DNA of 64,000 nt from a virus (Duplodnaviria > Caudoviricetes). Where the stretch lies: positions 1 through 64,000 of IMG/VR virus record IMGVR_UViG_3300027760_000553; one strand, written 5' to 3'. Within the stretch, counting starts at the first letter, position 1, and each line of letters begins with the position of its first letter. Positions 10,870 to 45,780 of this stretch are shown in pieces. Made by a program: the position numbers and the translations under genes. The notes under the pieces were generated by a model, which made no database searches, was not told the origin of the DNA, and worked only from the letters and a program-made list of their open reading frames with translations.

Positions 10870-10873
10870 AATG

Positions 10874-10901
10874 AAATCCTGAGCAAGATCTAAAACTGCT
10901 C
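10874..10901 (+). ncRNA. Repeated H-type pseudoknot, copy 1
   Basis: AAATC-CT-GAGCA-A-GATCT-AAAAC-TGCTC. Confidence 0.6.
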
Positions 10902-10995
10902 AATTTTTGGCCAGCGTGTCGTCCACAGACTTATCCACAGGCTTTACGTGTGATTAAAAACACACCCATTATTTCCCAGATTTAGGGCTTTGAGT

Positions 10996-11024
10996 TTGAA
11001 AATGTCAGTAAAGTCTGATAGGAT
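10996..11024 (+). promoter_or_regulatory. Early promoter with ATGTCAG spacer element
   Basis: TTGAAA-ATGTCAGTAAAGTCTGA-TAGGAT. Confidence 0.65.
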
Positions 11025-11203
11025 TGACTTATCAACAAGAAAGGAAAACTAATGGGAAATTTGATAGATGAGGTTTGCATAGGTTGTAATGAGAATGCCG
11101 TTACTATGACAGAATTGTATTGCACTAATTGCTACCTTGAAAAAAATTCAGAAATAGACTACGATAGTCTTGACCTACTATGGACAACGAAAGAGGCTAA
11201 CTA

Positions 11204-11419
11204 ATGGAATACCTATACTCAGTAACTTGCACCTATGACTCAGAGGCTACCCCTAAGTGGGTTGGTCGTTATTCAGATGCTTTATCTGCCGTTGAAGTTT
11301 ATCAAAAGTTTGTAGACCACGGACTTGCTAAGGAATACTCAACAATAAACTTATCTGAACCTTCAGGTAAGATGCACACAAAAACTTTCTACAAAACAGG
11401 AATGGTGGTAACAAGATAA
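11204..11419 (+). CDS. Hypothetical early protein
   Basis: ORF track; GAGG RBS. Confidence 0.55.
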   Translation: MEYLYSVTCTYDSEATPKWVGRYSDALSAVEVYQKFVDHGLAKEYSTINLSEPSGKMHTKTFYKTGMVVTR

Positions 11420-11706
11420 TGGGAAGCGTAACCGCAATTGGATTAGCAGATAGCGTCCTAGATTTAGAAACACAGATAGCCTATCACTTACAGGGTAATC
11501 ACTACCCACCCGTTCCACTTTCTATGGTGCAACCTTGCATAGATGCTATTGACGCATACTATGATGAGGACTATGACCGATTTATTGCTATGCCTGAAGG
11601 CGTATTCTATAAGGGGATGAGCCACGCACCTGCACACGCTATTGTAGACCAACACCACTTATCTTGGTTTATTGACCCAGTAGACAACTATGAGAATGAG
11701 GAATAA
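11419..11706 (+). CDS. Hypothetical early protein
   Basis: ORF track; HLQGNHYPPVP motif. Confidence 0.6.
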   Translation: MGSVTAIGLADSVLDLETQIAYHLQGNHYPPVPLSMVQPCIDAIDAYYDEDYDRFIAMPEGVFYKGMSHAPAHAIVDQHHLSWFIDPVDNYENEE

Positions 11707-11707
11707 A

Positions 11708-11950
11708 ATGTCTGATACAATGGAAACTATGGAATTGATCCACGCAGATAACTTAACACCAGACCAATTAATGATTGGTGATTTAATTAAAATTGATGAT
11801 GACATCGTTGAAGTTATTTTTATTGAAAGTGATTCTACTGGAGATAACTATGACATACAAACTGAAAATGAATTTGGTGAATTAGATATCACTCAACATT
11901 CTTTTGATAACCTAATTCCTTTATACGTTTTTATTGAAGAAGGTTTATAA
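11708..11950 (+). CDS. Acidic hypothetical protein
   Basis: ORF track with refined start. Confidence 0.55.
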   Translation: MSDTMETMELIHADNLTPDQLMIGDLIKIDDDIVEVIFIESDSTGDNYDIQTENEFGELDITQHSFDNLIPLYVFIEEGL

Positions 11951-12043
11951 ACTTCAACCCTTCGGGGCCAGCCGCAAATTCGGACATATAGGACATAGTT
12001 TACGGTATTTGATATTTTTCCCCTAATCTGCTAAGATAGTTAT

Positions 12044-12196
12044 ATGAAAAAAAATGCTGAGGAATTAAGACGCCTAATGGAATTACGTAGGTCTAATGCT
12101 GCCTCTGCTATCCCTAATAAAAAGAATTACAATAGAAAAAAATGTCAGTCCCTTATGTTAGAATTAAAGAAAGAAAGAGGCCCACACTATGAGTAA
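12044..12196 (+). CDS. 50-aa basic protein (ELRRSNAA family)
   Basis: MKKNAEELRRLMELRRSNAASAIPNKKNYNRKK...; leaderless start after TAAGAT. Confidence 0.55.
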   Translation: MKKNAEELRRLMELRRSNAASAIPNKKNYNRKKCQSLMLELKKERGPHYE

Positions 12197-12911
12197 ATTA
12201 CTAAGATCTAAAGATAGGAAAGTAGCAAATGCCGTTACCCCAAATGGAAAACAAGCAAGTATCGCCAACACATTCGGACTACCTGCAGGAAAAAACTTTT
12301 CATGTCCTGGTGCAACGAGTGTCTGCGAGAGTGTTTGCTATGCAGGTAAACTTGAAAAAATATTCCCAACAGTAAAGAAAAACTTATTGCACAATTGGGA
12401 ACTAATACGCAATGCAGATATGGATACTATGTTGCTATTGCTTGATGAGATGATTGTTGATTTTGTCAATGATTGTAATAAGAAAGACGCACCTAAACTA
12501 TTCCGTATACACTGGGACGGTGATTTTTTTAATGATACTTATGCCAATGCGTGGAAAACAATTATCACTAATCATCCTGAAATTCAATTCTGGGTTTATA
12601 CTCGTGTAAAGTCAGCCGCCCTAATCTTGCAGGGTATTGATAATCTATCTTTATACTATTCGACAGATAGCGAGAATAAGGATACTGGAATTGATCTAAA
12701 AACTAATCACGGAGTCCGTCTTGCTTACCTTGCTAAGAATTTTCAAATAGGGCAAGAAGATATGAAAAACTTAATTGGTAAGGTAGGGGCTAAGTGTCCT
12801 GAGAATAAGAAGGCTATTCCACTTATTAGCACTAAGGGCTCGGCTTGCGTTTCTTGCTCACTTTGTGTATACTCTAAGAGTGACATAGTATTTTCTGCGA
12901 CTAAGAAATGA
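12189..12911 (+). CDS. GP88-like (radical SAM-related) Fe-S protein
   Basis: SCPGATSVCESVCYA, FRIHWDGDF, FWVYT, CP...CVSCSLC. Confidence 0.75.
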   Translation: MSKLLRSKDRKVANAVTPNGKQASIANTFGLPAGKNFSCPGATSVCESVCYAGKLEKIFPTVKKNLLHNWELIRNADMDTMLLLLDEMIVDFVNDCNKKDAPKLFRIHWDGDFFNDTYANAWKTIITNHPEIQFWVYTRVKSAALILQGIDNLSLYYSTDSENKDTGIDLKTNHGVRLAYLAKNFQIGQEDMKNLIGKVGAKCPENKKAIPLISTKGSACVSCSLCVYSKSDIVFSATKK

Positions 12912-13065
12912 GCCTAATGGAATTATTAGCAATAGTATTGGTAAGCATAACCTTGCTTATCTTGTTTGACTCCCCCTTTTAGAAAGGGTGTCCCAAATGT
13001 CCGTTTTATCCCCTAGAAATGTGAGGAAGGTCACAAAAATAAATCTAAAAAATGCCATAAATAAC

Positions 13066-13094
13066 TGGAAAATGTCAGTAGGAAATGTTATACT
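13066..13094 (+). promoter_or_regulatory. Early promoter with ATGTCAG spacer element; CRP-type box upstream at 13020
   Basis: TGGAAA-ATGTCAGTAGGAAATGT-TATACT; TGTGAGGAAGGTCACA. Confidence 0.65.
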
Positions 13095-13128
13095 TGATAC
13101 ATACAACAACAACAAAAGGAGAAACACA

Positions 13129-13293
13129 ATGTCAGTAGCAACAGCAACATACAAAGTAGGAGATACCTACACAACACAGAAGTCAAAGGTTACAGGAACT
13201 ATCGTGGAAATCAACCCACAAGCAAATGGTAATGTTCGTGTAAAGTTAGATGTCAATGGTTCACACCGCTACACAACTTGGACGGCTAAGTAA
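13129..13293 (+). CDS. Small SH3-like hypothetical protein
   Basis: AAAGGAG RBS; MSVATATYKVGD. Confidence 0.6.
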   Translation: MSVATATYKVGDTYTTQKSKVTGTIVEINPQANGNVRVKLDVNGSHRYTTWTAK

Positions 13294-13302
13294 TCTAATC
13301 AG

Positions 13303-13331
13303 TATTTCCTGAGTATGAAATAAAACTGCTC
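13303..13331 (+). ncRNA. Repeated H-type pseudoknot, copy 2
   Basis: TATTTC-CT-GAGTA-T-GAAATA-AAAC-TGCTC. Confidence 0.65.
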
Positions 13332-13373
13332 AACACCCCCAACTAAAACCCCACAAAAGAAAAGAGAAAACAA

Positions 13374-13796
13374 ATGGCAAGAGGCAAAGCAATCTCAGTA
13401 AAAATCCCTACACAACGAGTAATCGCAGGACTAGAAGCATCACTAGCAAAACTAGAGATGGACTACGCATCACAAGAAGCAAACGAAGCAAAGTATCAAG
13501 AACTACACAAGGCTTGGAAAGATGAAATTGGTAAGTGGGCTATTGCCAACTACGCAAAGTCAGAAAACCTACGCACAAACTATCGTTCTTGGAACAACAC
13601 TCTCAATGTTGATTTTGACATCATCACAAAAGAGGGAACTTTCCCTGCTGAACCTGAAAAGGATTTTGAGGTTATTCACAATCACACCTATAAGGAAATG
13701 AAAGATGAAATGACTAACGCAATTCGTATCCTAAAGATGACAGATGAGGAAGTAGTTTCCACATCAACTTATCAAGCGGTTGCTCGTTATCTCTAA
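13374..13796 (+). CDS. Hypothetical coiled-coil protein
   Basis: ORF track. Confidence 0.65.
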   Translation: MARGKAISVKIPTQRVIAGLEASLAKLEMDYASQEANEAKYQELHKAWKDEIGKWAIANYAKSENLRTNYRSWNNTLNVDFDIITKEGTFPAEPEKDFEVIHNHTYKEMKDEMTNAIRILKMTDEEVVSTSTYQAVARYL

Positions 13797-13805
13797 ATAA
13801 ATAAA

Positions 13806-13832
13806 CGACCTGAGCAAGTCGCCAAACTGCTC
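13806..13832 (+). ncRNA. Repeated H-type pseudoknot, copy 3
   Basis: CGAC-CT-GAGCA-A-GTCG-CCAAAC-TGCTC. Confidence 0.65.
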
Positions 13833-14019
13833 ACACAACTAAATAAGATTAGGGTAAGAGGCTCAGCGCCTCTCCTATGTTCGCCAGGCTGATTAGGGCG
13901 ACAATAGAAATACTATAGAGCCACCTTATTGGGCAGGTGTAAGAACCCATACGAAACAGATCCAGTTTGAGAGTGTTCTCGGATAATGTCGTAAGTAAGA
14001 ACTCTACCCTTCGGGGTCC

Positions 14020-14048
14020 TTGACAATGTCAGTGGCCACGAGTACAAT
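14020..14048 (+). promoter_or_regulatory. Consensus SigA promoter with ATGTCAG spacer element
   Basis: TTGACA-ATGTCAGTGGCCACGAG-TACAAT. Confidence 0.75.
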
Positions 14049-14079
14049 TGAATTAACCAACTACAGAAAGAGGCCCCCA

Positions 14080-14511
14080 ATGGACCAACAAGATATACCA
14101 ACACTAACAGGCACAGTCAACGCAACAGAAGAGTTTCTTCGTGATTCACTGGCCAAGGCAACATTGCGTGTAACTCAACTAGAGGAGCACATTCAGAAAG
14201 TAACTCAGCGTTCATATGCAGATTCTGCAGATAAGAATCGTATGGTAGAAGCAATGCAAGAGTGGACCTTTGAAGCACTTGAGCAAGGAACTATCAATGA
14301 ATCAGAAGCAGAAGAAATTGCTGAGATTATGGGCTTTGAATTAACAAAAGAATTCGAAGTTGAAGTAACAGTTCTTTATTCTGTTACTGTTAATGCACGT
14401 ACAGAAGAGGATGCACAAAATGCAATTCACGATATTGATTTTGATACCGTGCAATACAATTCAGATTCAATCGGGTACCTATCGTCTTCAATTGATAGAA
14501 TAGATATTTAG
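14080..14511 (+). CDS. Acidic hypothetical protein
   Basis: ORF track with refined start; C-terminal VNARTEEDA motif. Confidence 0.6.
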   Translation: MDQQDIPTLTGTVNATEEFLRDSLAKATLRVTQLEEHIQKVTQRSYADSADKNRMVEAMQEWTFEALEQGTINESEAEEIAEIMGFELTKEFEVEVTVLYSVTVNARTEEDAQNAIHDIDFDTVQYNSDSIGYLSSSIDRIDI

Positions 14512-14525
14512 TAGGGGGCTACTAA

Positions 14526-14553
14526 TAAACCTGAGCACGTTTACAAACTGCTC
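14526..14553 (+). ncRNA. Repeated H-type pseudoknot, copy 4
   Basis: TAAAC-CT-GAGCA-C-GTTTA-CAAAC-TGCTC followed by a U tract. Confidence 0.65.
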
Positions 14554-14664
14554 ATTTTTTATTTAAATTTGCCAGCCCATTTTTTATAAATGTCAAGCGA
14601 CACGCCGATGTGTTTAAGATCACACCTAAAAATGTCCATATTGTCTATGTTTAACTATCCCGAT

Positions 14665-14693
14665 TTGCATATGTCAGCCCAGACTGCTACACT
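14665..14693 (+). promoter_or_regulatory. Early promoter with ATGTCAG spacer element
   Basis: TTGCAT-ATGTCAGCCCAGACTGC-TACACT. Confidence 0.65.
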
Positions 14694-14724
14694 TAGAATA
14701 TCAACAACAGAAAGAAGGAAAATC

Positions 14725-15747
14725 GTGGCTCACGACTTAGAAACACAAAACGGCAAAACCTCATTCGCATCATTCAGACAACCTGCTTGGCACGGATTAG
14801 GAACAGTCTTTACAGAAGAAAAAACAACCGCAGAAATGTTAGAGGCTGCAAATCTTAATGGGTGGAATGTTCGCCTTGAAGATTTGGAAACCCCTACACA
14901 TCTAACAAGCGACAAGGCATACCAATATGTCTTGCGAACAAACCCTACCGATAACACACAAACCGATATTCTCGGAATCGTTGGTGAGCGTTATCACCCA
15001 TTGCAGAATGAAGACCTATTCTCATTCGGTGATAATATTCTTGACGGTGGTGGTCGTTGGGAAACTGCTGGGTCAATCAAGGGTGGTCGTGTCGTGTTCG
15101 GTGCATTAGCATTAGAGCGTGAAACAATTCTTGACCCTAATGGTGTAAGTGATAAGGTAAAAACTTATTTGCTCATCAACACATCTCACGATGGTTCTAT
15201 TGCTATTCAAGCAAGTATCACACCCGTTCGTGTTGTGTGCGCTAACACTCTCAACCTTGCTCTCGGTGGCGTAGGTCGTAAGAAGAATAAGGGAATCAAG
15301 CAATCATTCAAGATTCGCCACACACAAACCGCTAATGGTAAAGTTCAAATTGCTCGTGAGACTCTTGGTCTTGCTAATGCTTATATGGACGAATTTGATA
15401 TTATGGCTAAGGCTATGATTGAGAAAGAGGTCAATGCGATTGACTTCAACAAAATCATTCTTGCTGCATATCCTAAGCCAGAAAAAGATGCTAAGGGTGC
15501 TTTCAAGAAATGGGAAAACAAGGTAGATGTCATCAACGATATTTACACAGGCGAGTTCAATGGAATGATTGCGGGTAATGCGTGGGGTGCGTTCAATGCA
15601 CTAACTGAGCGCCTTGACTGGTATCGTTCTGCTCGTGGTGGTTCTAACGAATCCATTCTTGCATCAGCATCAGGATTTGACCCTGCTATCAACGCAGAAA
15701 AAAATCGTTTGCTAAAAGTTGTGCAAGGCGTAATGTCTCTCGCATAA
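14725..15747 (+). CDS. DUF932 family phage/plasmid protein
   Basis: AWHGLG, ETAGSIKGGR, YLLINTSHDGS, TPVRVVCANTL, IRHT motifs; GTG start after GAAGG. Confidence 0.85.
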   Translation: MAHDLETQNGKTSFASFRQPAWHGLGTVFTEEKTTAEMLEAANLNGWNVRLEDLETPTHLTSDKAYQYVLRTNPTDNTQTDILGIVGERYHPLQNEDLFSFGDNILDGGGRWETAGSIKGGRVVFGALALERETILDPNGVSDKVKTYLLINTSHDGSIAIQASITPVRVVCANTLNLALGGVGRKKNKGIKQSFKIRHTQTANGKVQIARETLGLANAYMDEFDIMAKAMIEKEVNAIDFNKIILAAYPKPEKDAKGAFKKWENKVDVINDIYTGEFNGMIAGNAWGAFNALTERLDWYRSARGGSNESILASASGFDPAINAEKNRLLKVVQGVMSLA

Positions 15748-15753
15748 TAAAAA

Positions 15754-15781
15754 AATTCCTGAGCAAGAATTAAAACTGCTC
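15754..15781 (+). ncRNA. Repeated H-type pseudoknot, copy 5
   Basis: AATTC-CT-GAGCA-A-GAATT-AAAAC-TGCTC. Confidence 0.65.
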
Positions 15782-15790
15782 TCCATAACT

Positions 15791-15864
15791 GGAGTGTTAG
15801 CATAGTTGGTTAATGCGCTACCCTGTCACGGTAGAGATCACGGGTTCAAGTCCCGTACACTTCG
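15791..15864 (+). tRNA. tRNA-Asp(GTC)
   Basis: Acceptor GGAGTGT/ACACTTC; anticodon arm CTACC-CTGTCAC-GGTAG; T arm GGTTCAAGTCC. Confidence 0.92.
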
Positions 15865-18008
15865 CAATTAAATAAATCGGCCAGCAGTGTGACCAAGATA
15901 ACATTTTTGCAAACATTCGATTACGAAGGGCCTTGACTTTTCCCTAAATTTCTGCGATAATTAGTATATGACCCAACAAGTTGCAATATATGAAATGAAC
16001 TACTCCTGCTCTCCTGGTGGCGTTGACTGCTGGGAAGCAACCATTCAAGGATATGGGACAAGCACTACTGCCTCTGACTTTAAAACTGCTGGAGAGGCCC
16101 TTAATTGGGTTATTGACAGACACCCTGACGAAGTGCTAGAATTGGTAGTAACATCACTACCTGCCTATGAAAAGGAATATGTATGACCCAAACAATATCA
16201 GACCCAATGCTACAAGACTACTATTCTTGTGATCTTGCTATCTCTATTACAAATATCAAGGCTAAGAATAGACACCACGCAGAAGCCGTTATGCAAACCT
16301 TCATAGATGAGATTGGCAAGATAATGACTGATGAACTTAGTTGGGATGACGCTCAATGGGATATAGAGGAAAATGTATTCCTACCTGAACTTGGAGAGTG
16401 GCATACAAAGTGAATACCATTGACGAACTAATCAATGAAATATATGAAAGCAATTTCTCTCACTTAGAGTTTGAAGAAAATATGGGTGGAGATGCTTGCG
16501 ACTGCCATATCCACACTACACTAAACACTATTGCCCACTATGCTGGAATTGAGGTAGGAGAATGAAGGTTAGAATCAGTCTTGAACAAACCATAGATATA
16601 GATGATGCTATGTCTAATGATATAGGGTTTGAACTCTATGGTCCACCTGATATGAGTAATGAGGATAAGGTTGATTATCTAATTGCCCGATTTGCTGAGG
16701 ACATAGATACTATGGTAAAGTACGATGAAGTAATGGGCAACATCTCAGTAGAATACATAGAGGACTAGATGTTAGGCTATACTGAAACTGATATTGCAGT
16801 AATGACAGATGCTATGGAAGATGCTATCAAATCAGGTAGACTCTCTTCTGAGGTAGTAGATGGTTTAGAAAAGGCTCAATCATTCCTTGATGGTTTATGG
16901 GCAGAAGGGTACTTTGACTAATGTGGAGTAAGTATACATTTGTTTGTGACCCTGATGAGTGTGATGCTCTTCTTGAGTTTACCGCCAGGGACGGATACGG
17001 ATTCCCCAATGGATCTGTAGAGATGAAATGCCCTTGTGGAAGAATGATGAACTATATTAGTTATGAAGATGCTTGGGAACCGATCATTACAGATGTGAGC
17101 AAGGTCACACCCGTAACAGTTGTAAAAATCAACACTAACCCGTATAATTAATACTATGGACCTAAATACACTTAAAGAATATATACGCTTACACGCCATA
17201 TCCCTTGAACAGGATTTGGAAAACGAGGACGGTGCTGATAGCATTGTTCCTTACCTAGAAGGTGCAATTCATGTATCCCGTCACTATTTGGAGGTAGCAG
17301 GTGAATAATATAGAACTTGACCCATACCTAATGAAACAAGTAGAAATGGGTATGGACGGAGCAGACATCCTGCACGGACACCTAAAGACCCTTATGTATG
17401 AGGCTGAGCAAGTTCTTGACCGTTGCATTGAGGCAGAGGAATACTCAGAGGAAGCCATGGACTCTATGGCTCGTACAGAAGCAACGGGATACTTAGACGC
17501 CCTTTCTGAGGTATATGCATTAACTTATGCTATTGCATTTGCCAAGGAAGATGTTAAGAACCGTAAGGAGATTCTTGGTGGATAACTTTATTGAGATGAC
17601 GGAAGATGAGTGGTTTGACACTTATAAGCCTATTAAGAATCATCTAGATGAGAATGCTAGTTTTGATGGGCATATGTTTGAGACCTACGATGGGGAAGTG
17701 GCCTTTGTAAAAGAACAAGACCCTGCCTATATCTGGATGTATGGTGATGGTGACGACGGTGGTAGTTACATCTGGAACGGATGGCACATCGTAAATAGAA
17801 TAGGATACTTTATCACTTCCGTACCCTGCCCTCCTGACACGACTATTCAGGTCTTGGTCAGTCATAACTGGTTCTATTGTGAGAACTGCAGCGCTGAGTT
17901 TGAAGACCCTGATAATATAATCAGAGATGCCTTTGATGAGCACGATTTGGAAAAATGCCCAGAATGTGCTACACTTGATGAAATGACCCTAGTAGGAATG
18001 GATAAAAA

Positions 18009-21781: not shown

Positions 21782-22315
21782 ATGCATGTAATAATTTCAC
21801 AACCAAGATCTGGATCAAACTTCATAATTGAAAATGTAAGAAAATTTTCAGATATTACAATAGACAAACATCCATATACTCATCTATGGAATAAAGATTT
21901 TATAGAAAAAAAGTTTGAAAATAAATACATTTTGGTTCTTAGAAAACCAATGGATGTTGTTGTTTCATCATTGATACATAGTTTTGCAAATAAAGAAGAA
22001 GAAGTTCAAATAAACGAAGATGCTTTAATAAAATCTGCTGCAAGGTATTCAAGACACATTCTGCCGTGTTCAATTGACGAAGTGCTTAAGTTTGATTTTA
22101 ATGATCTAGCGTCTCAACCTCATAGAGTTATATCAGCGATTACAGATTTAGACTTCAGTGATAAAGAGTTAGTAGAACCAGAAGGTTTACATGGATCTTT
22201 AAAAATGCACAAAAGTTATGAAGATTCATATAATTTTGCACTAAAACATTCTAGTATTTTTGATGAAGCAAACATTTTATATGAAGAAGCACTTCTAAAA
22301 ACTATAAAGTTTTAA
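21782..22315 (+). CDS. Sulfotransferase-like P-loop protein
   Basis: PRSGSNF 5'-PSB-like loop; LRKPMDVVVS 3'-PB-like motif. Confidence 0.6.
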   Translation: MHVIISQPRSGSNFIIENVRKFSDITIDKHPYTHLWNKDFIEKKFENKYILVLRKPMDVVVSSLIHSFANKEEEVQINEDALIKSAARYSRHILPCSIDEVLKFDFNDLASQPHRVISAITDLDFSDKELVEPEGLHGSLKMHKSYEDSYNFALKHSSIFDEANILYEEALLKTIKF

Positions 22316-22619: not shown

Positions 22620-22673
22620 AGCACTATTATACTTTACATACCTTGAAATAATTAAGAATGCTATAATTAAAAT

Positions 22674-23558: not shown

Positions 23559-23638
23559 AATTTATACTATTTTATTTAGAAAGACTTATTAGGTCCATAT
23601 TAAAGAAAAATAAAAAGAAAAAAGACTATATTTATTAG
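23555..23638 (+). CDS. 27-aa basic micro-protein ending in DYIY
   Basis: MKFILFYLERLIRSILKKNKKKKDYIY; ATGA overlap with the SGNH-like gene. Confidence 0.5.
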   Translation: MKFILFYLERLIRSILKKNKKKKDYIY

Positions 23639-24527: not shown

Positions 24528-24940
24528 TATGCATACCAACTAATCGTGAAGCCGTCATACAGTAGGACACTGTTTCCTGTTAATCCCCAGTTTGCTTGCC
24601 ATTGTGGGAATGAAAGATCTGTGCCAGGAACTTCTCCATAGTTGTTTACTCCTGGAATTAAAGAAATACCTGAATTTATAACCTGGAATTGCATTCCGTT
24701 AAAAGCCATACCTGCGTTAGTCAAACCAGAGATTGTGATTATTGTGTTTTCTCCAGTAGGCATGTGATCCATTATATAAGAAGGGGCTGAAAAATTTTGC
24801 CAACTAAGGACTACGCCATCAAATATTGCATCTTGATTGTTTGCAGTAAAGTTAAATGACCATGACTGTAATGGATTTCCATTAATGTTACCTGAGCCTG
24901 TTACTGTTCCTGCTCCGAATATTCCTCTTGGTGCTACCAT
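24527..24940 (-). CDS. Hypothetical beta-rich protein
   Basis: ORF track; leaderless start. Confidence 0.55.
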   Translation of the reverse strand: MVAPRGIFGAGTVTGSGNINGNPLQSWSFNFTANNQDAIFDGVVLSWQNFSAPSYIMDHMPTGENTIITISGLTNAGMAFNGMQFQVINSGISLIPGVNNYGEVPGTDLSFPQWQANWGLTGNSVLLYDGFTISWYA

Positions 24941-24996
24941 GAGATTATTATATCATCTGTTTTGACATAACCTGCCAAGTAGGGTATACTGATTAT

Positions 24997-25410
24997 ATGA
25001 TTAACGAAAAGAATAACTACTTTCAATCTGAATCTAAAAGAATTGGGGATGAATTTGAAGAACTTGTTTACCAAGACCTACTTGGTCGTGGATTTAATAC
25101 TATTGATCGAGATTATTATTTTGCTGGTTCTGGGTGCGAAGTAGATTTTAGAGTACATTCAGATACCCGTTTTGAATATATAGAGGCAAAGGGCGGAAAA
25201 GCAGGGGAAGGCAAAAGACCTGGGGCGCAAAGAACAGATAATGTAAAAAAAGCAATTGCCAATGGTGCTTTAATAAAAACATTTAACGACATATATTATG
25301 TTGTTTATTTTTCTGCAAAACCTGAAGTTGGAAGTTATTCTGATGAAATGATTAACATTGCACTTAAATATAAAATAATTGATGAGGTTAGGTATCTACA
25401 AGATGCATGA
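24997..25410 (+). CDS. PD-(D/E)XK restriction-like endonuclease
   Basis: GDEFEELV...EVDF...YIEAKG. Confidence 0.65.
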   Translation: MINEKNNYFQSESKRIGDEFEELVYQDLLGRGFNTIDRDYYFAGSGCEVDFRVHSDTRFEYIEAKGGKAGEGKRPGAQRTDNVKKAIANGALIKTFNDIYYVVYFSAKPEVGSYSDEMINIALKYKIIDEVRYLQDA

Positions 25411-25975
25411 CATTAAGATTAGTGGAACAGATAACAAAAATATAGTTATTGCAAAAAATTGTTTTTCAAAAGAAGATTTAACAAATGAATCTGCCGTTTT
25501 GCAAGTAATCATTGGATCTCTAACTGCTAAATATAAAGATTTTTCTTTTAGTCTTGAAAGTTCTGATGATTTACCAAACTGGGTAAATGTATTGTTGCCA
25601 CTAAAAGGATTTAAAATAATCTTTAACTGTAATCCCAGGATATACCATGATGCGGATGAGGGGGACTTTTTAACTTTCCCATCTGAAATTGGTTTTATGA
25701 TATCAAATCAATATAATACTAACGAATTAACTAAACAGTATAAGATATATTATTACCCTAAAATTAAAAAACAAGAAGGTAGAAACAAATATACTATTAA
25801 AGCAACCCTTCAAGATAACTACAATATAGATATTTATGCAGACAGCGAAGAAGAAGCATTGCAAAAAGCATATAATATACCGCTGCCAGAATGGAATCAT
25901 GAAGAGATAGACGATAAACCAGAAAAAATGAAAATAATTAGATGGTCACGGTGGGGAAACTTTAAAATAATATGA
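25403..25975 (+). CDS. Hypothetical protein
   Basis: ORF track; C-terminal IYADSEEEALQKA motif. Confidence 0.55.
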   Translation: MHDIKISGTDNKNIVIAKNCFSKEDLTNESAVLQVIIGSLTAKYKDFSFSLESSDDLPNWVNVLLPLKGFKIIFNCNPRIYHDADEGDFLTFPSEIGFMISNQYNTNELTKQYKIYYYPKIKKQEGRNKYTIKATLQDNYNIDIYADSEEEALQKAYNIPLPEWNHEEIDDKPEKMKIIRWSRWGNFKII

Positions 25976-26538
25976 AATCAAAACAAATTCATCTAAGTTA
26001 TTATCCAAGATCTGGAACAACATTTTTTATAAAAAATTCTAAGATATTATTTCCAAGTAGCCTTATTGTTTCATATGCAACAGGAAATGGTATTCAAAAA
26101 TTTTTAAATAATAAAAGTTTGTTTCATTTTTCAATAATTAGAAACCCAATTGATTTGATATCTTCTGAGGTTACATTAGAGATGATGAAAAATGTAGAAA
26201 GTGTAAATAGAATTGAATATAGATCAATAAAGCGTATAGACTTGCTGGAAAATTTTTATAATTCAATAAAAGAAAACGAACATGTAAGTATATTTGATTT
26301 TAATGATTTGACTTTAAAACCTAAAGAACTTTTTAGTTATTTGGCAAAAAATAATGATGTTCAATTAAACAATAAAGATATTGTAAAGGTTAGTCCCATG
26401 CCAAATGTTTTTTTTGCATCTGCAAAAGAAGTTGAAAGTTATGAAAAGGTAAGGGATGTCATTTTAAACAATGTAGACTTATACAAAATTAATAAAATGT
26501 ATGATGAATTAATTAATAAAAAATTTGCTATAAGTTGA
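25972..26538 (+). CDS. Sulfotransferase-like protein
   Basis: YPRSGTTF; IRNPIDLISS. Confidence 0.6.
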   Translation: MKSKQIHLSYYPRSGTTFFIKNSKILFPSSLIVSYATGNGIQKFLNNKSLFHFSIIRNPIDLISSEVTLEMMKNVESVNRIEYRSIKRIDLLENFYNSIKENEHVSIFDFNDLTLKPKELFSYLAKNNDVQLNNKDIVKVSPMPNVFFASAKEVESYEKVRDVILNNVDLYKINKMYDELINKKFAIS

Positions 26539-26719
26539 CTTAACCACTGATTTGATGTATACTAATTACATGGTAAAAGAAATCAATATTGAGGATATTC
26601 CAGATAACATTAAAGACAAAATAATTAAAAATTATTTAATTAGATATTATCATTGGACAATTGGGTGCTTTTCTTTTCTTGTTGGCATATTGCTTGGCAT
26701 ATTAATATCTTAATTACAT

Positions 26720-26793
26720 GCACCAGTAGCCAAGTTGGTTAAGGCACCGAACTCATAATTCGGCTATCGTAGGTTCAAGTCCTACCTGGTGTA
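26720..26793 (+). tRNA. tRNA with CAT anticodon (elongator Met or Ile2)
   Basis: Acceptor GCACCAG/CTGGTGT; anticodon arm CCGAA-CTCATAA-TTCGG. Confidence 0.9.
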
Positions 26794-26797
26794 CGAT

Positions 26798-26871
26798 GCG
26801 GATGTTGCATATTGGTAGTGCCTCTGCCTTCCAAGCAGAAGGGGTGAGTTCGATTCTCATCATCCGCTCCA
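26798..26871 (+). tRNA. tRNA-Gly(TCC) with encoded CCA
   Basis: Acceptor GCGGATG/CATCCGC; anticodon arm TCTGC-CTTCCAA-GCAGA. Confidence 0.92.
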
Positions 26872-26872
26872 A

Positions 26873-26945
26873 GTCTCCATGGTCTAGTGGCCTAGGACTC
26901 CACCCTTTCACGGTGGCAACACGGGTTCGAATCCCGTTGGAGATA
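26873..26945 (+). tRNA. tRNA-Glu(TTC)
   Basis: Acceptor GTCTCCA/TGGAGAT; anticodon arm CCACC-CTTTCAC-GGTGG. Confidence 0.92.
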
Positions 26946-26954
26946 CAATATCAT

Positions 26955-26996
26955 TCCTAGATCGTCTAACGGCAGGACAGGGGCCTCTCAAGCCCT
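26955..26996 (+). pseudogene. Truncated tRNA (5' half only, CTC anticodon)
   Basis: D arm GTC-TAACGGCAG-GAC and anticodon arm GGGGC-CTCTCAA-GCCCT; no T arm or 3' acceptor strand. Confidence 0.6.
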
Positions 26997-27010
26997 TATA
27001 AACCTATTAC

Positions 27011-27083
27011 ACCTCTGTAGTTCAGTGGACAGAACGATGGACTTCTAAGCCATGCGTCGCAAGTTCGATTCTTGCCAGGGGTA
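27011..27083 (+). tRNA. tRNA-Arg(TCT)
   Basis: Acceptor ACCTCTG/CAGGGGT; anticodon loop CTTCTAA; T loop GTTCGATTC. Confidence 0.88.
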
Positions 27084-27112
27084 CAACATGATATACTTTT
27101 AACGGAGGGCAT

Positions 27113-27814
27113 ATGCCAAAAATACCAGTAAATGGATTTAATGATGATGGAAGTCTTAAAAAATTACAAGATGATCAAATTGAGCATACCCCATTAATAT
27201 CCCAGGATCAGTTAAATAATGCAAAAATATTTTCTTCTAGAGAAGAATACATAAAGCATTTACCTAAAAATATTAAATATATGGAGATTGGTGTTTCTTG
27301 GGGATATTATTCAAAACTAATAGCCGATATATGTGAACCAAATGAGATATGGCTTTTAGATAGATATTCAATTGACTCAAGATGTTGGAGTTGGATTAGA
27401 ACTGGATCCTGTCAATGCGAGCCAACAAAGCATACAATTCTTTTTACACCAGAAACCCATGAAAAATATATTAAAGATGAATTTTCTAAATATAAAAATG
27501 TTTACATTATTAAGGGAGAAGCAGAAAATACTTTGCCAAACCAAGATAAAGATTTTGATTATATATATTTTGATACACACAACGATAGAGAACATACAAA
27601 GATAATGCTTGATGAAATATCAAAGCATGTCAAAGTTGGTGGAATAATTGGAATAAATGACTATTTAATTTATGACGGAATGAATTGGGATGATTTTTAT
27701 GGAACTTATTTTTCTGTTAATTGGTTCTTAAATAATAATAAAAATTGGTCTGTTAAAGCATTGGCTTTACAGAATTATAGTTTTAATGATATATATCTTA
27801 CAAAGGATTTTTAA
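27113..27814 (+). CDS. Class I SAM-dependent methyltransferase (Methyltransf_24-like)
   Basis: MEIGVSWG; FDYIYFD.H; VKVGGIIGINDY. Confidence 0.75.
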   Translation: MPKIPVNGFNDDGSLKKLQDDQIEHTPLISQDQLNNAKIFSSREEYIKHLPKNIKYMEIGVSWGYYSKLIADICEPNEIWLLDRYSIDSRCWSWIRTGSCQCEPTKHTILFTPETHEKYIKDEFSKYKNVYIIKGEAENTLPNQDKDFDYIYFDTHNDREHTKIMLDEISKHVKVGGIIGINDYLIYDGMNWDDFYGTYFSVNWFLNNNKNWSVKALALQNYSFNDIYLTKDF

Positions 27815-28704
27815 TGATAGAAAACTATGATTTAAAAAATAAAGTTTATTTAAATGCAAACGACATATTTAATTATGAGTTTGATATAACTTGGATGAAT
27901 ATGCAGGAGCATCAAGGTAACAGGAATTATACACTTTTACCAATAGAAAGAGCCGAAGATGATTTTACTATAGAATATAATTTTAATAAAGATGGTTTTA
28001 GATCAGATGATTTTACAGATAAACATACCCCAGGCAAGCACATACTTTTTGCTGGTTGCTCACAAACTGAAGGGGTTGGAAGTTCGTTAGATACTGTTTG
28101 GTCAAAGATGCTTCATGATAAACTTCAATTAAATAACTTAACAGATGGCTTTTATTCTATTGCTAGATCTGGCTATGGGTGGCAAAAAATAATTGCAAAC
28201 TTTATGGCATATTCAAAAAAATATGGATTTCCAGACTATCTTTTTGTTTTAATGCCTAATATAACCAGACATTTTATTTGGCACAATAATGATTATCTAT
28301 ATATTCAAAGATATAAAGATGATGGAAATATAAATGAACCTGAACCAAAAAGTATTGTAGATGATCAACCAGCAACAATTGAAGATTATCACGAAGAGTT
28401 TTTAAATTTTTCATTAGGTTGGAAAATTTTTATAGAATATTGCAAAAAAAACAATGTTAAAATTTTATGGTCTACATGGGATTATTCAGATAATCATAAC
28501 ATAAAATTATTTAATCAGCATGAAGATTTTTTTGAAATGAATCATGAAGAGTATATGAAGATGATAAAAGATAAAAGACCAAACGGAATTTTAGAAAGAT
28601 ATGATATTAAAAGAAGAGATGGTCATGCTGGTGTTTTATCTCACGAGTATTGGTTGAATTCTTTTGTAAAAGAATTAAGGAGGTTTGGAATTGAAATTAA
28701 TTAA
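27814..28704 (+). CDS. SGNH/GDSL-like hydrolase or acyltransferase
   Basis: FNKDGFRSD...FAGCSQTEGVG...RDGHAG. Confidence 0.55.
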   Translation: MIENYDLKNKVYLNANDIFNYEFDITWMNMQEHQGNRNYTLLPIERAEDDFTIEYNFNKDGFRSDDFTDKHTPGKHILFAGCSQTEGVGSSLDTVWSKMLHDKLQLNNLTDGFYSIARSGYGWQKIIANFMAYSKKYGFPDYLFVLMPNITRHFIWHNNDYLYIQRYKDDGNINEPEPKSIVDDQPATIEDYHEEFLNFSLGWKIFIEYCKKNNVKILWSTWDYSDNHNIKLFNQHEDFFEMNHEEYMKMIKDKRPNGILERYDIKRRDGHAGVLSHEYWLNSFVKELRRFGIEIN

Positions 28705-28777
28705 TAAAATAATTGTTTGGTACAGATTTAAAAAAATAGAAAAACAGATCAAAAAACAAGAAAAATATATATATTAA
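28691..28777 (+). CDS. 28-aa basic micro-protein ending in KYIY
   Basis: TTG start after AGGAGG; LKLINKIIVWYRFKKIEKQIKKQEKYIY. Confidence 0.5.
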   Translation: MKLINKIIVWYRFKKIEKQIKKQEKYIY

Positions 28778-28923
28778 TTATCTTTCAGATTTTGGTTTTA
28801 ACTGTGTTGTTCGATCAAAATAGCGTTCAATCTTTGCTTTAATAGTTCCATCTTTACGCATCTTAACAATCCAACCATCTTTGATTTGAGTATCATTAAA
28901 TGATCCCGCTTTTTTCTTTGGCA

Positions 28924-29913
28924 TTATAGTGAGTGTCTTTCTGTGTTAACTCTTGTGTAATCTTTTCCAAAATCAGCAAATAAGGCCTTATCCTTTTCAC
29001 GATTAACTATTGATCTTGACCAAGAGAATCCTGCGTCTCCACCCCATGCTAACCACATGATGTATCCGTTAGATGGGTTTGCTGAGTTACCCCAGTCCTT
29101 ACCTTTCTTGTCTACTTCATGGCGTGAGAAGTATGAGTACATCCTCTTAACAGTACTAAGAGAGATTGATTCTCCTCTTGCTAACTGCCCTGCACGAGTC
29201 CAACCTACAGATGTTCCAGCACCATTTGCTTTTCCATCTTCCTTAAACTTAATTGCTCTACGAGCAGCAGATCTTGCTCCTGCTGGTGGTGAGTATCCAT
29301 CTGCCTTTGAAACTGTATCTGTATCATATTCAACTGTGTCATCATCTTCAAACAGATCATCTGCTTTTGCATCAGGAACACAGTTAGGAACTGGTTTACC
29401 ATTATCTCCTGGTTTCATTCCTCTTTGTACATATCCATCCCAACAAGGTGCTTGCTTATTTAGATCAGCACAACAATCACTTTTCATTTCATTTGCTTGA
29501 CAAACAGGACAGTTTTCACAATTTACATTTAGTTCTTTACATGTCGGACATCCACAACCATCATACTCTTTACCTTGATATGTATTTGTTGGCATCATTG
29601 AATCATCTGCTTTGCCCATCTGAGCATCAAACATTGCCATTCCTATTTCTGAGTCCATTGTGTGGTTTTCCATTTCTACTTTTGTAGCATCCTTGTACAT
29701 CATTCCAATACTGTATGCTGTTGGTTCCCATTTACCGTTTTCTTCTTTATAAATTCTAACAGCCATTGCTGGGTTCTCTGGTGGCATAGACTGAATTGCA
29801 TACTCTGTTCCAGGTGTACCGTAAATTCCACCCTCTGTCATTATGTGTTCAACTACACCATGAACAACACCCTCTGATGTTGAACCCATAACAAAATCTC
29901 CTTCTTTTATCAT
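28924..29913 (-). CDS. Multi-domain protein, probably head-associated (Tudor-like N-terminus, Cys-rich segment, PCWDGY motif, conserved C-terminal domain)
   Basis: ORF track, start refined to MIKEGDFV; TVKRMYSYFSRH...WLAWGGDAG domain. Confidence 0.55.
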   Translation of the reverse strand: MIKEGDFVMGSTSEGVVHGVVEHIMTEGGIYGTPGTEYAIQSMPPENPAMAVRIYKEENGKWEPTAYSIGMMYKDATKVEMENHTMDSEIGMAMFDAQMGKADDSMMPTNTYQGKEYDGCGCPTCKELNVNCENCPVCQANEMKSDCCADLNKQAPCWDGYVQRGMKPGDNGKPVPNCVPDAKADDLFEDDDTVEYDTDTVSKADGYSPPAGARSAARRAIKFKEDGKANGAGTSVGWTRAGQLARGESISLSTVKRMYSYFSRHEVDKKGKDWGNSANPSNGYIMWLAWGGDAGFSWSRSIVNREKDKALFADFGKDYTRVNTERHSL

Positions 29914-29917
29914 AATA

Positions 29918-30367
29918 TTAGTCGTTTCCAACTTCTTTAAGTGATGCAGTAAGCATCCAGTGCCATCTCTGGTGCATGTCCATGCGTTCTGCAAAGAAGT
30001 TTGCAATTGCATGTTGTCTATTTTGTGTAGCAAGATCAACAGCATCTGTAAGTTTTGCAAGAACCATATCATTAGCCATAAGTAAATCTGCAGACATCAT
30101 CATTGGATCTGAAGTAACATCAGGCTCTCCAACTTCATTTAATACAATAAATCTTGATAGTTTAAATGGTGCATATGTATCTAACTTACGAAGCCATTCA
30201 GCATAGGTGTCTGTTGCTTGATCGTAGTCTGTATAAATATTTTCAAAAAGTTCGTGGAATTGAACAAAATCATCGCCTTCTACATTCCAGTGATACCCAT
30301 GAGCCTTCAGTTTAAGGGTAATATTATCTGCAAGCAGGACCTTAAGGGTATTAATTAGTTCTTCCAT
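29918..30367 (-). CDS. dps: Dps-family ferritin-like DNA protection protein
   Basis: HGYHWNVEGDDFVQFHELFENIY...DTYAE...HWML. Confidence 0.9.
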   Translation of the reverse strand: MEELINTLKVLLADNITLKLKAHGYHWNVEGDDFVQFHELFENIYTDYDQATDTYAEWLRKLDTYAPFKLSRFIVLNEVGEPDVTSDPMMMSADLLMANDMVLAKLTDAVDLATQNRQHAIANFFAERMDMHQRWHWMLTASLKEVGND

Positions 30368-30391
30368 GCTTATCATTATAGCATAGTAAGT

Positions 30392-30479
30392 GAGCAGTTT
30401 TTTACAGTCATGCTCAGGACTATACCAGTTATTTAGTGTCGCTGTCTCCCCCGACATTTTTCCTATTCGGAAAAGTCCT
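30392..30479 (-). ncRNA. Putative ~88-nt small RNA ending in pseudoknot copy 6
   Basis: Own TG-A-TATAAT at 30485-30490; hairpins UUUUCC/GGAAAA and UGUCG/CGACA; TATAGTC-CT-GAGCA-T-GACTGTA-AAAAAC-TGCTC. Confidence 0.55.
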
Positions 30480-45773: not shown

Positions 45774-45780
45774 AAACCTT

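Follow-up and report, generated by a model that had tools for sequence, protein, structure and literature searches.

What kind of element recurs six times, with changing sequence, in the genome of a lake-water phage, and what could it do there? In the window, by which we mean the whole 64,000-nt stretch of DNA analysed, the pattern CTGAGYA-N5-12-AAACTGCTC has exactly six matches (Table 1), compared with a mean of 0.00 in 100 dinucleotide shuffles of the window. The whole virus record (99,582 bases) contains the same six copies only, and a reversed-pattern control over that record gives 0 matches. These are the sites at which the first-pass annotation had placed six copies, and the stem-1 arms are as it described them, including the mismatch in copy 1 and the GAGTA/TGCTC variant of copy 2.

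Table 1. Pseudoknot copies in the 64,000-nt window, with the adjacent tRNA gene and immediate surroundings.
Feature	Span	Strand	Pattern match	Stem 1	Other parts	Upstream	Downstream
Copy 1	10874-10902	+	10879	AAATC/GATCT, one A.C mismatch	S1a 10874-78; CU 10879-80; S2a GAGCA 10881-85; A 10886; S1b 10887-91; L3 AAAAC 10892-96; S2b UGCUC 10897-10901; A 10902	TGA of ORF 10690-10869, 4 nt before S1	T-run 10904-10908 directly after
Copy 2	13303-13332	+	13309	6 bp, UAUUUC/GAAAUA	S2a GAGUA, U.G wobble against UGCUC	stop of ORF 12988-13293, 9 nt before	next gene begins 13374
Copy 3	13806-13833	+	13810	4 bp, CGAC/GUCG	L3 CCAAAC	stop of ORF 13374-13796, 9 nt before	
Copy 4	14526-14554	+	14531	5 bp, UAAAC/GUUUA		stop of ORF 14020-14511, 14 nt before	T-run 14555-14560 directly after
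Copy 5	15754-15781	+	15759	5 bp, AAUUC/GAAUU		double stop of DUF932 gene (14590-15747), 6 nt before	tRNA-Asp begins 9 nt 3'
tRNA-Asp gene	15791-15865	+					
Copy 6	30391-30424	-	30392-30417	7 bp, UAUAGUC/GACUGUA, one G.U	L3 AAAAAC	divergent intergenic region	ferritin/Dps-like gene

Each copy is a true H-type RNA pseudoknot, 28–34 nt long, on the sense strand of the phage mRNA. Its layout is S1 - CU - S2a (mostly GAGCA) - W - S1' - (N)AAAC - S2b (mostly UGCUC) - A. Stem 1 (S1) consists of 3–7 bp of free sequence closed by a C-G pair, and stem 2 (S2) of 5–6 bp, usually U/GAGCA with UGCUC/A, the 5' strand being purine-rich. A single base, U or A, joins S2a to S1', and the A-rich loop L3 ends in AAAC. 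A G-poor tail of ~8 nt follows on the 3' side; among the matches listed, A occupies position +1 in 107/155 copies and G appears at +2 in 3/155 and at +3 in 6/155.

The stems follow in the order S1a-S2a-S1b-S2b, with compensatory changes in each. Among the matches listed, 111 copies from other viral contigs served for stem 1, and two of its pairs change freely while remaining paired: pair 6-19 is GC in 40, AU in 30, UA in 21, CG in 19 and other in 1, and pair 7-18 is UA in 55, AU in 44, CG in 8, GC in 2 and other in 2. The covariation score of these listed copies was reached by 0/500 shuffles, and 89.5% of cells pair in register versus 25–39% when the partner is slid. Stem 2 is invariant within the window apart from the copy 2 wobble but covaries in an outside sample in which it was left unconstrained, anchored only by C-CU-NNNN-A-N-G, a stem 1 of at least 3 bp and AAAC-U (262 distinct copies among the matches listed). 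There, S2b is fully complementary to a canonical S2a in 220/222 listed copies (2/222 at a downstream control) and to a non-canonical S2a in 31/40 (control 2/40), with types that include AAGCA/UGCUU, GGGUA/UACCC, GGACA/UGUCC, GGCCA/UGGCC, AGGCA/UGCCU, AGACA/UGUCU and GAACA/UGUUC. In nested folds, the S2 hairpin has an energy of -4.5 to -8.4 kcal/mol.

G.U pairs far outnumber A.C pairs and the copies are oriented with the genes, so it is the sense-strand RNA that folds. With S1 fixed as CGAC/GUCG, the matches listed contain 82 U.G or G.U pairs versus 5 C.A or A.C pairs; the first S2 pair alone is G-C in 102, A-U in 11, G.U in 9 and A.C in 2. Of the covariance-model matches listed, 299/300 lie on the gene strand, and of 138 listed copies, 127 share the strand of their nearest upstream ORF and 11 lie opposite to it. 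Among copies with an S1 of at least 3 bp, the distal S2 pair is A.C in at least 79, and a common 3'-half variant, AAAAGGCUCA, places an A.G at the junction in ~40 of the 58 non-UGCUC cases among the matches listed. The proposal that this is a structure-selected cis-acting RNA pseudoknot is borne out by covariation in both stems and by a strand-specific arrangement co-oriented with the genes.

The element belongs to no named family and is so far an unnamed motif, as the first-pass annotation had suspected. At gathering score, Rfam 15 (4227 models, including riboswitches, ribozymes and phage motifs) reports only six tRNAs across the whole window; at E<=10 over 13280–15800, it gives nothing on copies 2–5 and one unrelated weak match at 14390–14429. 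In fifteen other carrier loci, the same models find just six tRNAs and one tmRNA-like match. The motif is, moreover, highly abundant among phages whose hosts span many bacterial phyla: four motif-pattern scans of a viral-contig collection each returned at least 114–120 loci. Canonical copies occur in the cultured Mycobacterium phage Labelle, Lactobacillus phage phiEF-1.1 and Lentibacter phage ICBM1, and further copies lie on contigs of Saccharibacteria, Clostridia, Chloroflexi and cyanobacteria; the carriers include phages of Actinobacteria, Firmicutes, Proteobacteria, candidate-phyla-radiation bacteria and others. A genome can carry up to six copies, and some are arrayed in tandem, with three in ~170 nt at locus L119 and two at locus L055. 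This host range fits a factor-independent mechanical role or a universal target.

The earlier description of the copies as marking the 3' ends of genes applies to five of the six in the window, where the short gaps after stop codons and the position of copy 5 just before tRNA-Asp were found as described (Table 1). It fails for copy 6, which has no upstream co-oriented gene, as is also true of 11/138 copies in a wider listed sample; the S1a of copy 6 overlaps a promoter-like TGGTATAGT, with a TGCTATAAT box next, ahead of the ferritin/Dps-like gene. In listed copies, the stop-to-S1 distance has a mode of 5–6 nt, a minimum of 4, a median of 14 and an upper quartile of at least 74 nt, and the next start codon is a median of 103 nt away. 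Among 147 copies of a wider sample of the matches listed, a long-ORF stop lies within 20 nt upstream in 89, a T-run follows directly in 23 (15.6% versus 4.3–4.5% at control positions, a 3.5-fold excess), a tRNA (Asp, Arg twice, Ser) starts 4–13 nt downstream in 15 (10%) and in 39 a Shine-Dalgarno sequence with a start codon is no more than 50 nt away. The first-pass remark that most copies lack a U tract holds for the other window copies and needs correction for copies 1 and 4, which are directly followed by T-runs. A small hairpin (GTAGGGGGCTAC) is also present between the stop of ORF 14020-14511 and copy 4.

The flanking genes are unrelated, with DUF932, GP88, Hsp20, ribonucleotide reductase, PhoH, helicase and scaffolding protein all represented. 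Downstream genes in the window encode 140-aa and 163-aa proteins of unknown family, DUF932, tRNA-Asp and a ferritin-like protein; those outside it encode a nuclease, PhoH, helicase, glutaredoxin and scaffolding protein.

The first-pass annotation listed several functions without choosing among them; the context statistics favour a 3'-end block or processing boundary. Our leading reading, to which we tentatively give a little less than an even chance, is that the pseudoknot acts as a compact decay and processing barrier, giving cistrons stable 3' ends, and as a terminator stem where a U-tract follows. It would work in cis, as a mechanical obstacle where a cistron ends. Placement 5–6 nt past the stop codon could be as near as a terminating ribosome permits, and the knot would stay folded on translated mRNA because it is sited at that limit. 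Once folded, it could halt 3'-to-5' exonucleolytic trimming from a nearby 3' end, which might arise in any of three ways: by termination at a following U-tract, with S2 as the terminator stem; by RNase P cutting at a tRNA 4–13 nt downstream; or by endonucleases that cut within the A/U-rich leader of the gene that follows. For example, RNase P cleavage at the 5' end of tRNA-Asp would leave a 9-nt tail behind the copy 5 pseudoknot. The upstream message would then remain stable and complete, and neighbouring cistrons would be insulated from one another.

Several observations count against such a barrier. Half of the copies among the matches listed (74/147) have no T-run, tRNA or nearby start codon; some copies lack an upstream co-oriented gene; and in phiEF-1.1 the element lies 48 nt past the stop, behind an ordinary terminator. 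RNA-library contigs span copies 2 and 3 unbroken, and these copies are therefore not efficient stop or cleavage sites. The absolute number of A.C pairs and the A.G junction of AAAAGGCUCA also weigh against it. In addition, it is not obvious why a purely mechanical block should need L1, L3 and most of S2 to be near invariant across phyla when S1 is free, features equally typical of a protein, ligand or RNase P binding site. The pseudoknot is not an intrinsic (Rho-independent) terminator as such: T-runs follow 2/6 window copies and 23/147 listed copies, and a terminator scan called none of the six window copies on the sense strand.

Of the alternatives, a sequence-specific operator for an RNA-binding protein survives best and is, in our judgement, unlikely. 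The partner could be encoded by the phage or be a host factor of universal occurrence (the ribosome or RNA polymerase, for example), and its binding would control termination, antitermination or the translation of flanking genes. Near invariance of L1 (CU), the A-W junction, L3 (AAAC) and the purine-rich S2a alongside a free S1, the tandem arrays at L119 and L055 and the G-poor unstructured tail are all what an operator might show. However, no protein family is common to the carriers (121 sources, namely 120 listed loci and the phage's own genome), and the largest cluster of nearby proteins reaches 23/121 listed sources, all relatives of this phage. The flanking genes share no relationship. 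A phage-encoded partner would need equal spread, because carriers infect at least three phyla in culture, and within ~5 kb of the listed elements no such partner appears.

A processing signal, with polycistronic phage transcripts cut between cistrons, seems rather unlikely. In one version, a tRNA-acceptor-like coaxial stack would be cut by RNase P in L1, with U at -1, G at +1 paired to C and then A; in the other, the element would be a new small self-cleaving RNA. A universal target suits the cross-phylum spread, 15/147 listed copies lie 4–13 nt ahead of a tRNA, and ribozymes typically combine covarying stems with unpaired bases that are conserved. A conserved U before a G-C pair, with A at +1 in 69% of listed copies and C or U at +2 and +3, also resembles RNase P determinants. 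Yet ARAGORN and the Rfam tRNA and ribozyme models call none of the copies, the S1+S2 stack is not of constant length (S1 is 3–7 bp), ACCA follows just 14/156 copies among the matches listed and the RNA-library contigs bridge copies 2 and 3 uncut. On the first three of these grounds the copies do not fit a tRNA or tRNA-like structure, and no natural self-cleaving class is known to be as small as a 30-nt motif. We give a similarly low probability to an active module in place of a passive block, either a tRNA-acceptor mimic that recruits the universal RNase P or a new class of self-cleaving RNA that would be the smallest, with the cut in L1 between the conserved U and G. If true, phages of all bacterial phyla would share one portable 'cistron separator' of 30 nt, after whose cut the downstream message keeps a protected hairpin at its 5' end.

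The remaining readings, namely recoding, riboswitch, ribozyme and DNA-site functions, are less likely than a decay and processing barrier. It is distinctly improbable that the element sits at the mRNA entrance of a ribosome with the stop codon in its A site, modulating termination, readthrough, frameshifting, or post-termination scanning and reinitiation. Stop-to-S1 spacing does peak at 5–6 nt, the same geometry as slippery-site-to-pseudoknot spacers, and compact viral frameshifter pseudoknots match the element in topology and size. In 89 listed copies with a stop within 20 nt, however, the median extension would be 7 codons by readthrough, 8 in the -1 frame and 4 in the +1 frame, and an in-frame slippery heptamer is found in 2/89. 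Copy 5, moreover, follows a double stop and precedes a tRNA, and many copies have no stop nearby (upper quartile at least 74 nt). As a -1 frameshift or readthrough stimulator, the element thus has the spacing but neither the heptamer nor the extended product.

Very improbable is a ligand-sensing riboswitch aptamer, a preQ1-I-like small H-type knot controlling termination or a downstream ribosome-binding site. The smallest known aptamers resemble the element in size, topology and an A-rich L3, its loop bases are highly conserved and a U-run or Shine-Dalgarno sequence sometimes comes next, but Rfam riboswitch models do not match the copies even at E<=10, no alternative-pairing expression platform is seen and the downstream genes, tRNAs included, are functionally unrelated, with up to six copies per genome. 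Least probable of all is a DNA-level signal (for example a promoter, an operator, a hotspot of recombination where modules meet or a hairpin site in single-stranded DNA): extended -10-like boxes follow copy 6 and one related family, the S1a of copy 6 is itself -10-like and homologous upstream sequence is joined to differing downstream genes at copy 6, L056 and L096, but the conserved halves vary in spacing (core length 21–28 nt among the matches listed), both stems covary, strand bias tracks genes and the listed 82 G.U versus 5 A.C would be indistinguishable to double-stranded DNA.

If these findings hold, phages carry a structured RNA motif that is among their most abundant and has gone unnamed. 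At ~30 nt, sequence-defined and with both stems covarying, the motif suits structural and mechanistic study. It could be used to annotate cistron and transcript boundaries in uncultured phage genomes and possibly as a compact, host-independent mRNA-insulator or stabiliser part.

Among known systems, the BWYV-type -1 frameshifting pseudoknots of luteo- and poleroviruses are ~28 nt long, with a first loop of 2 nt that starts with C, one junction base, an A-rich last loop along stem 1 and a position ~5–6 nt downstream of the ribosome's waiting codon. The phage element is like them in size, loops, junction and placement. In contrast, it follows a stop codon rather than a slippery heptamer (2/89 listed copies), extends no ORF in any frame and occurs on DNA-phage mRNAs with many copies to a genome, some of them ahead of tRNAs and promoters. 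PreQ1-I (Rfam PreQ1), the smallest known natural aptamer class, is likewise an H-type knot with an A-rich third loop; our element has no covariance-model match to it at E<=10, differs in loop lengths and conserved bases, is multi-copy and has no link to queuosine genes. Like intrinsic terminators and REP-like 3' stabiliser hairpins, the element lies just past stop codons, with a U-run in 16% of listed copies; unlike them, it is a pseudoknot rather than a GC-rich hairpin, its loops are conserved across phyla and most copies lack a U-tract.

In T4, the gene 32 pseudoknot, which PMC10690425 mentions, occurs once, at the gene for the ssDNA-binding protein, and that gene's own product binds it. Autoregulation of that type does not apply here, as the downstream genes are unrelated. 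Nevertheless, the gene 32 mRNA operator is also an H-type pseudoknot of compact size that lies in an intercistronic leader of a phage and precedes an unstructured stretch poor in G, and in these respects the elements are alike. More broadly, the flaviviral xrRNAs and the plant-virus coremin appear in PMC10321173 as small, sequence-defined, pseudoknotted 3' UTR elements that stall a processive enzyme, can stall ribosomes too and are at times tandem. The phage element shares the small size, defined sequence, pseudoknotted fold, place in 3' untranslated regions and occasional tandem arrangement given there. By contrast, xrRNAs block the eukaryotic 5'-to-3' enzyme Xrn1, whereas the putative opponents of the phage element are bacterial: PNPase, RNase R/II, RNase J or scanning RNase E. 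Judged by its position, the phage element may be xrRNA-like; a bacterial-virus counterpart of the xrRNAs of eukaryotic viruses, if that is what it is, would make the control of phage mRNA decay directly testable.

Exactly six sites in the window match the pattern CTGAGYA-N5-12-AAACTGCTC, against an expected mean of 0.00 from 100 dinucleotide-preserving shuffles, and the full virus record of 99,582 bases, whose first 64 kb form the window, contains the same six copies only; a reversed-pattern control over this record gives 0 matches. At all six sites we confirmed the sequence letters reported in the first-pass annotation, as well as its description of stem-1 (S1) arms that differ in each copy and still pair. 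Its placement of the element at the 3' ends of genes holds for plus-strand copies 1–5, which begin 4, 9, 9, 14 and 6 nt past the stop codon of an ORF in the same orientation, but not for minus-strand copy 6, which occupies a divergent intergenic region; its statement that most copies lack a U tract is corrected by T-runs directly 3' of copies 1 and 4. The tRNA-Asp gene, 9 nt past the end of copy 5, is the only window tRNA preceded by a pseudoknot, as neither the cluster of tRNAs Met, Gly, Glu and Arg nor tRNA-Asn has one. Two copies have further local features. Copy 4 is preceded, downstream of the stop codon, by a small hairpin that is kept in L011 and L042, two of the carrier loci from other viral contigs (designated by L-numbers). 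A stretch 5' of copy 6 is conserved in loci L056 and L096; the gene 3' of copy 6 is ferritin-like, that of the L056 and L096 counterparts encodes an SNase-type nuclease, and the copy 6 element is at a mosaic junction, with its 5' S1 arm doubling as a –10-like box.

Positions of the pseudoknot copies and of other features in the window
Feature	Position	Strand	Detail
Pseudoknot copy 1	10874-10902	+	pattern match at 10879
Pseudoknot copy 2	13303-13332	+	pattern match at 13309
Pseudoknot copy 3	13806-13833	+	pattern match at 13810
Pseudoknot copy 4	14526-14554	+	pattern match at 14531
Pseudoknot copy 5	15754-15781	+	pattern match at 15759
Pseudoknot copy 6	30391-30424	-	pattern match at 30392-30417
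Small hairpin 5' of copy 4	14512-14523		GTAGGGGGCTAC
Conserved stretch 5' of copy 6	30391-30460	-	AGACAGCGAC ... TGGTATAGTC
Arrangement 3' of copy 1	10909-10965
DnaA-box-like nonamer	10919-10927		TCGTCCACA
DnaA-box-like nonamer	10931-10939		TTATCCACA
Similar arrangement	7519-7555		GCCAGCC plus TGTGGATAA
GGCCAGC/GCCAGCC heptamer	10909-10915
GGCCAGC/GCCAGCC heptamer	11966-11972
GGCCAGC/GCCAGCC heptamer	14571-14577
GGCCAGC/GCCAGCC heptamer	15879-15885
Transcription-unit end with hairpin	11950-12040		CCC-TTCG-GGG
TGTGA-N6-TCACA-type palindrome	14609-14624
TGTGA-N6-TCACA-type palindrome	15888-15903
tRNA cluster (Met, Gly, Glu, Arg)	26720-27084	+
tRNA-Asn	45700-45773	-
Auxiliary gene cluster	21782-22315, 32608-33480, 39371-46638

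The proposal of a structure-selected RNA pseudoknot is borne out by covariation, which supports both stems, S1 among 111 copies and S2 among 262 and 124 copies. In a gap-free alignment of the 111 copies, all five S1 pairs are changed on both sides; pair 6-19, for example, is GC in 40, AU in 30, UA in 21, CG in 19 and another combination in 1. C-G closes S1 in 107/111, and the stem is usually 3–5 bp long because the fifth pair is formed in only 40/111. The S1 covariation score was matched by 0/500 shuffles, and pairing is 89.5% in register versus 25–39% with the partner slid. This alignment is uninformative on S2, as its copies were chosen with S2 fixed, and we therefore resampled the fetched loci using an anchor (C-CU-NNNN-A-N-G, S1 of at least 3 bp, ...AAAC-U) that leaves four positions free in each of the S2 arms (S2a and S2b). 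Among the resulting 262 distinct copies, which are not independent events because many are homologous positions of related phages, S2 is fully complementary in 220/222 with GAGC or GAGU and in 31/40 with other S2a sequences; a control tetramer a few bases downstream is complementary in 2/222 and 2/40. Compensated S2 types include AAGCA/UGCUU (10), GAGUA/UACUC (4), GGGUA/UACCC (3) and GGACA/UGUCC (3), together with GGCCA/UGGCC, AGGCA/UGCCU, AGACA/UGUCU and GAACA/UGUUC. When S2 combinations compete with S1 fixed as CGAC/GUCG (124 listed copies), the distal S2 pair is G-C in 102, A-U in 11, G.U in 9 and A.C in 2, and the U-with-A association at pair 4 is not significant (6/9 versus 73/115). In absolute numbers, A.C at the distal pair is not rare, occurring in at least 79 copies with S1 of at least 3 bp.

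Constant features include the closing C-G of S1, the CU of L1, the final A of S2a, the U/A junction, the AAAC that ends L3 and the first U of S2b; S2a is purine-rich (RRRYA). The core is exactly 23 nt in 116/156 listed copies, and thus the combined length of S1' and L3 is constant, with L3 becoming shorter as S1 becomes longer. The first base 3' of S2b is A in 107/155 listed copies, lengthening S2 by a U-A pair, and the roughly seven positions that follow this A are G-poor. A variant 3' half, AAAAGGCUCA, which has A.G at the junction, makes up ~40/58 of the non-UGCUC cases. It replaces AAACUGCUCA, occurs together with the canonical form in individual phages (L127-L206, L014, L042, L064, L071, L081) and is absent from the genome carrying the window. 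In nested folding of the six copies, the S2 hairpin has energies of –4.5 to –8.4 kcal/mol, and S1 by itself is weak, becoming visible through covariation only. An anchor-free structural descriptor was swamped by background (8538 matches versus 8487 on reversed sequence).

The evidence points to RNA and not to duplex DNA as the form that folds: sense-strand wobbles are asymmetric (82 U.G and G.U versus five of the mirror forms C.A and A.C in the fixed-S1 sample), the spacing between the conserved halves is variable, and the copies are co-oriented with genes, the nearest upstream ORF sharing their strand in 127 cases and lying on the opposite one in 11.

As the first-pass annotation anticipated, this RNA matches no named family. 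At gathering score, Rfam 15 models identify only tRNAs in the whole window, a permissive search (E ≤ 10) of 13280-15800 places nothing on copies 2–5, and fifteen other carrier loci yield only tRNAs and one tmRNA-like match. No published description was found in the full-text literature searched, and the strings CCTGAGCA and AAACTGCTC occur in phage literature as primer coincidences only. The motif is absent from the main text of the Minerva preprint and from that of PMC10690425, a study of ~10,000 candidate viral RNAs whose supplements may list it. We conclude that the element is an abundant, cross-phylum phage RNA pseudoknot, so far unnamed, for which the structural reading is right and the function is one that we infer.

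A scan of viral contigs for the canonical halves finds at least 120 loci, and at least three consecutive S1 pairs form in register in 146/155 matches listed, although the pattern does not demand S1; further scans covered two S2 variants and one fixed S1, and the counts from all of these scans are minimum values. Viral contigs contain 354 relatives of the DUF932 gene, and the best 80 of these 354 loci give 311 matches at E ≤ 1, or about four per 7 kb, to a covariance model built for the element; 299 of the 300 listed are on the gene strand. Cultured carriers of a canonical copy include Mycobacterium phage Labelle (one copy, after gene 85, at 56437-56471), Lactobacillus phage phiEF-1.1 (at about 22278-22310) and Lentibacter phage ICBM1 (at about 14305-14335, with a ribonucleotide reductase gene on one side and a glutaredoxin gene on the other). 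Among matches in contigs of bacterial genomes and MAGs, S1 is at least 4 bp in 30/120, from Saccharibacteria, Lachnospiraceae and other Clostridia, Eggerthellaceae, Anaerolineae, Calothrix, Coxiellaceae and others; the other 90 lack an S1 of 4 bp and are attributed to chance. Bacillus phage poppyseed/Page (4663-) and Pasteurella phage PMP-GADVASU-IND (15307-) have look-alikes whose S2b does not fully pair; these were excluded as uncertain. Flanking genes in other carriers include those for Hsp20, ribonucleotide reductase, PhoH, helicase, nuclease and scaffolding protein. GC-richer phages carry tandem arrays in non-coding stretches, with three elements in ~170 nt in L119 (7408-7575) and two within ~80 nt in L055 (11873-11955). 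In L119, ~90 nt 3' of an element, a tmRNA model match at gathering score (11486-11558; 47.3 bits) may be a tRNA-like domain.

A near-mode search of the phage collection found no close DNA relatives of the window, and the distant mode gave tRNA and short coding matches only; the DnaE-type polymerase of this phage is ~54% identical to Streptomyces phage counterparts. Genes adjoining the copies are of the Pfam families GP88 and DUF932, with a ferritin/Dps-like gene after copy 6, and the 58 window ORFs scanned yielded neither an RNA polymerase nor an RNA-processing enzyme. One cluster of auxiliary genes, possibly a module for modifying glycans or DNA, encodes a sulfotransferase, an APS-kinase-like protein, a Nol-type carbamoyltransferase, three 2OG-Fe(II) oxygenases and a TP_methylase-fold protein. 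Copy 1 is followed, in order, by GGCCAGC, two DnaA-box-like nonamers and the inverted repeat GTGTGATTAAAAACACAC; two to three DnaA-like boxes are kept after the homologous element in L011, L013, L017, L026 and L108, and this arrangement may represent an origin of replication or a promoter under DnaA control. The GGCCAGC/GCCAGCC heptamer recurs a few bases 3' of each apparent transcription-unit end, at one of which a hairpin replaces the pseudoknot. Palindromes, presumably CRP/FNR-like, lie 5' of the next genes at two sites, with clearer versions (TGTGACCAAGATCACA) in L081, L042 and L011. Because the first of them falls inside the mechanical ORF 14590-15747, the real DUF932 gene probably starts near 14713.

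In a context sample of 147 listed copies with S1 of at least 3 bp, the spacing between the upstream stop codon and the start of S1 is most often 5–6 nt, with a sharp floor at 4 nt and a median of 14 nt, and the next start codon follows the element at a median of 103 nt. A T-run comes directly after the element in 23/147 (15.6%), compared with 4.3% of random positions and 4.5% of positions 30–40 nt after other stops. A tRNA gene starts 4–13 nt downstream of 15 copies (12 at the homologous tRNA-Asp site, two at independent tRNA-Arg genes and one at tRNA-Ser), 39 have a Shine-Dalgarno sequence and start codon within 50 nt, and 74 have no T-run, tRNA or nearby start. Two lake-water metatranscriptome libraries contain more than 80% of sampled words of 10500-16500. 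Contigs from these RNA libraries span copies 2 and 3, which, if the contigs are RNA, let transcription and the transcript pass. Coverage by contigs breaks off at 10887/10894 (within copy 1), 14514/14517 (9–12 nt 5' of copy 4) and 15743/15617 (5' of copy 5) in the two libraries and restarts 150–240 nt past those stops, positions that, as contig boundaries, cannot show RNA ends; these gaps carry no weight in our reading, which draws on the spanned copies alone.

A ribosome holds 4–6 nt of mRNA downstream of its A-site codon, which corresponds to the floor in stop-to-S1 spacing; the knot could thus sit as close to the ORF as possible and still escape melting whenever a ribosome terminates. Each of the downstream features, whether a U-tract, a tRNA with its RNase P site or the A/U-rich leader ahead of the following gene, would be a place where RNA 3' ends are made, and for this reason we favor, tentatively and at somewhat less than an even chance, a compact decay barrier that sets a stable 3' end a few nucleotides downstream of the stop and insulates neighboring cistrons. 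Where a U-tract is present, as at copies 1 and 4, the pre-organized S2 helix could provide the terminator stem. Weighing against a barrier, all three downstream features are missing in half of the copies and the upstream gene is missing for a few.

The conserved loops are not obviously needed for a passive block and, like the tandem arrays, would suit a protein-binding operator, which is nevertheless unlikely, as no partner protein shared by the carriers was found within ~5 kb and the hosts belong to several phyla. A signal for RNase P or for self-cleavage could account for the universality of the element, its U/G-C/A arrangement and its tRNA neighborhood, but tRNA and ribozyme models give no support and RNA-library contigs bridge copies, making this reading distinctly doubtful. 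Ribosome-directed recoding fits the stop-to-S1 spacing and is improbable, given slippery sites in just 2/89 cases and median frame extensions of 4–8 codons. A riboswitch is highly improbable, and a DNA-level site, against which the wobble asymmetry stands, is the least probable of all.

In structure, the closest analogues of the phage element are the 28-nt frameshifter knots of luteoviruses. For a decay barrier, the closest functional analogues would be the exoribonuclease-resistant pseudoknots of eukaryotic RNA viruses (PMC10321173).
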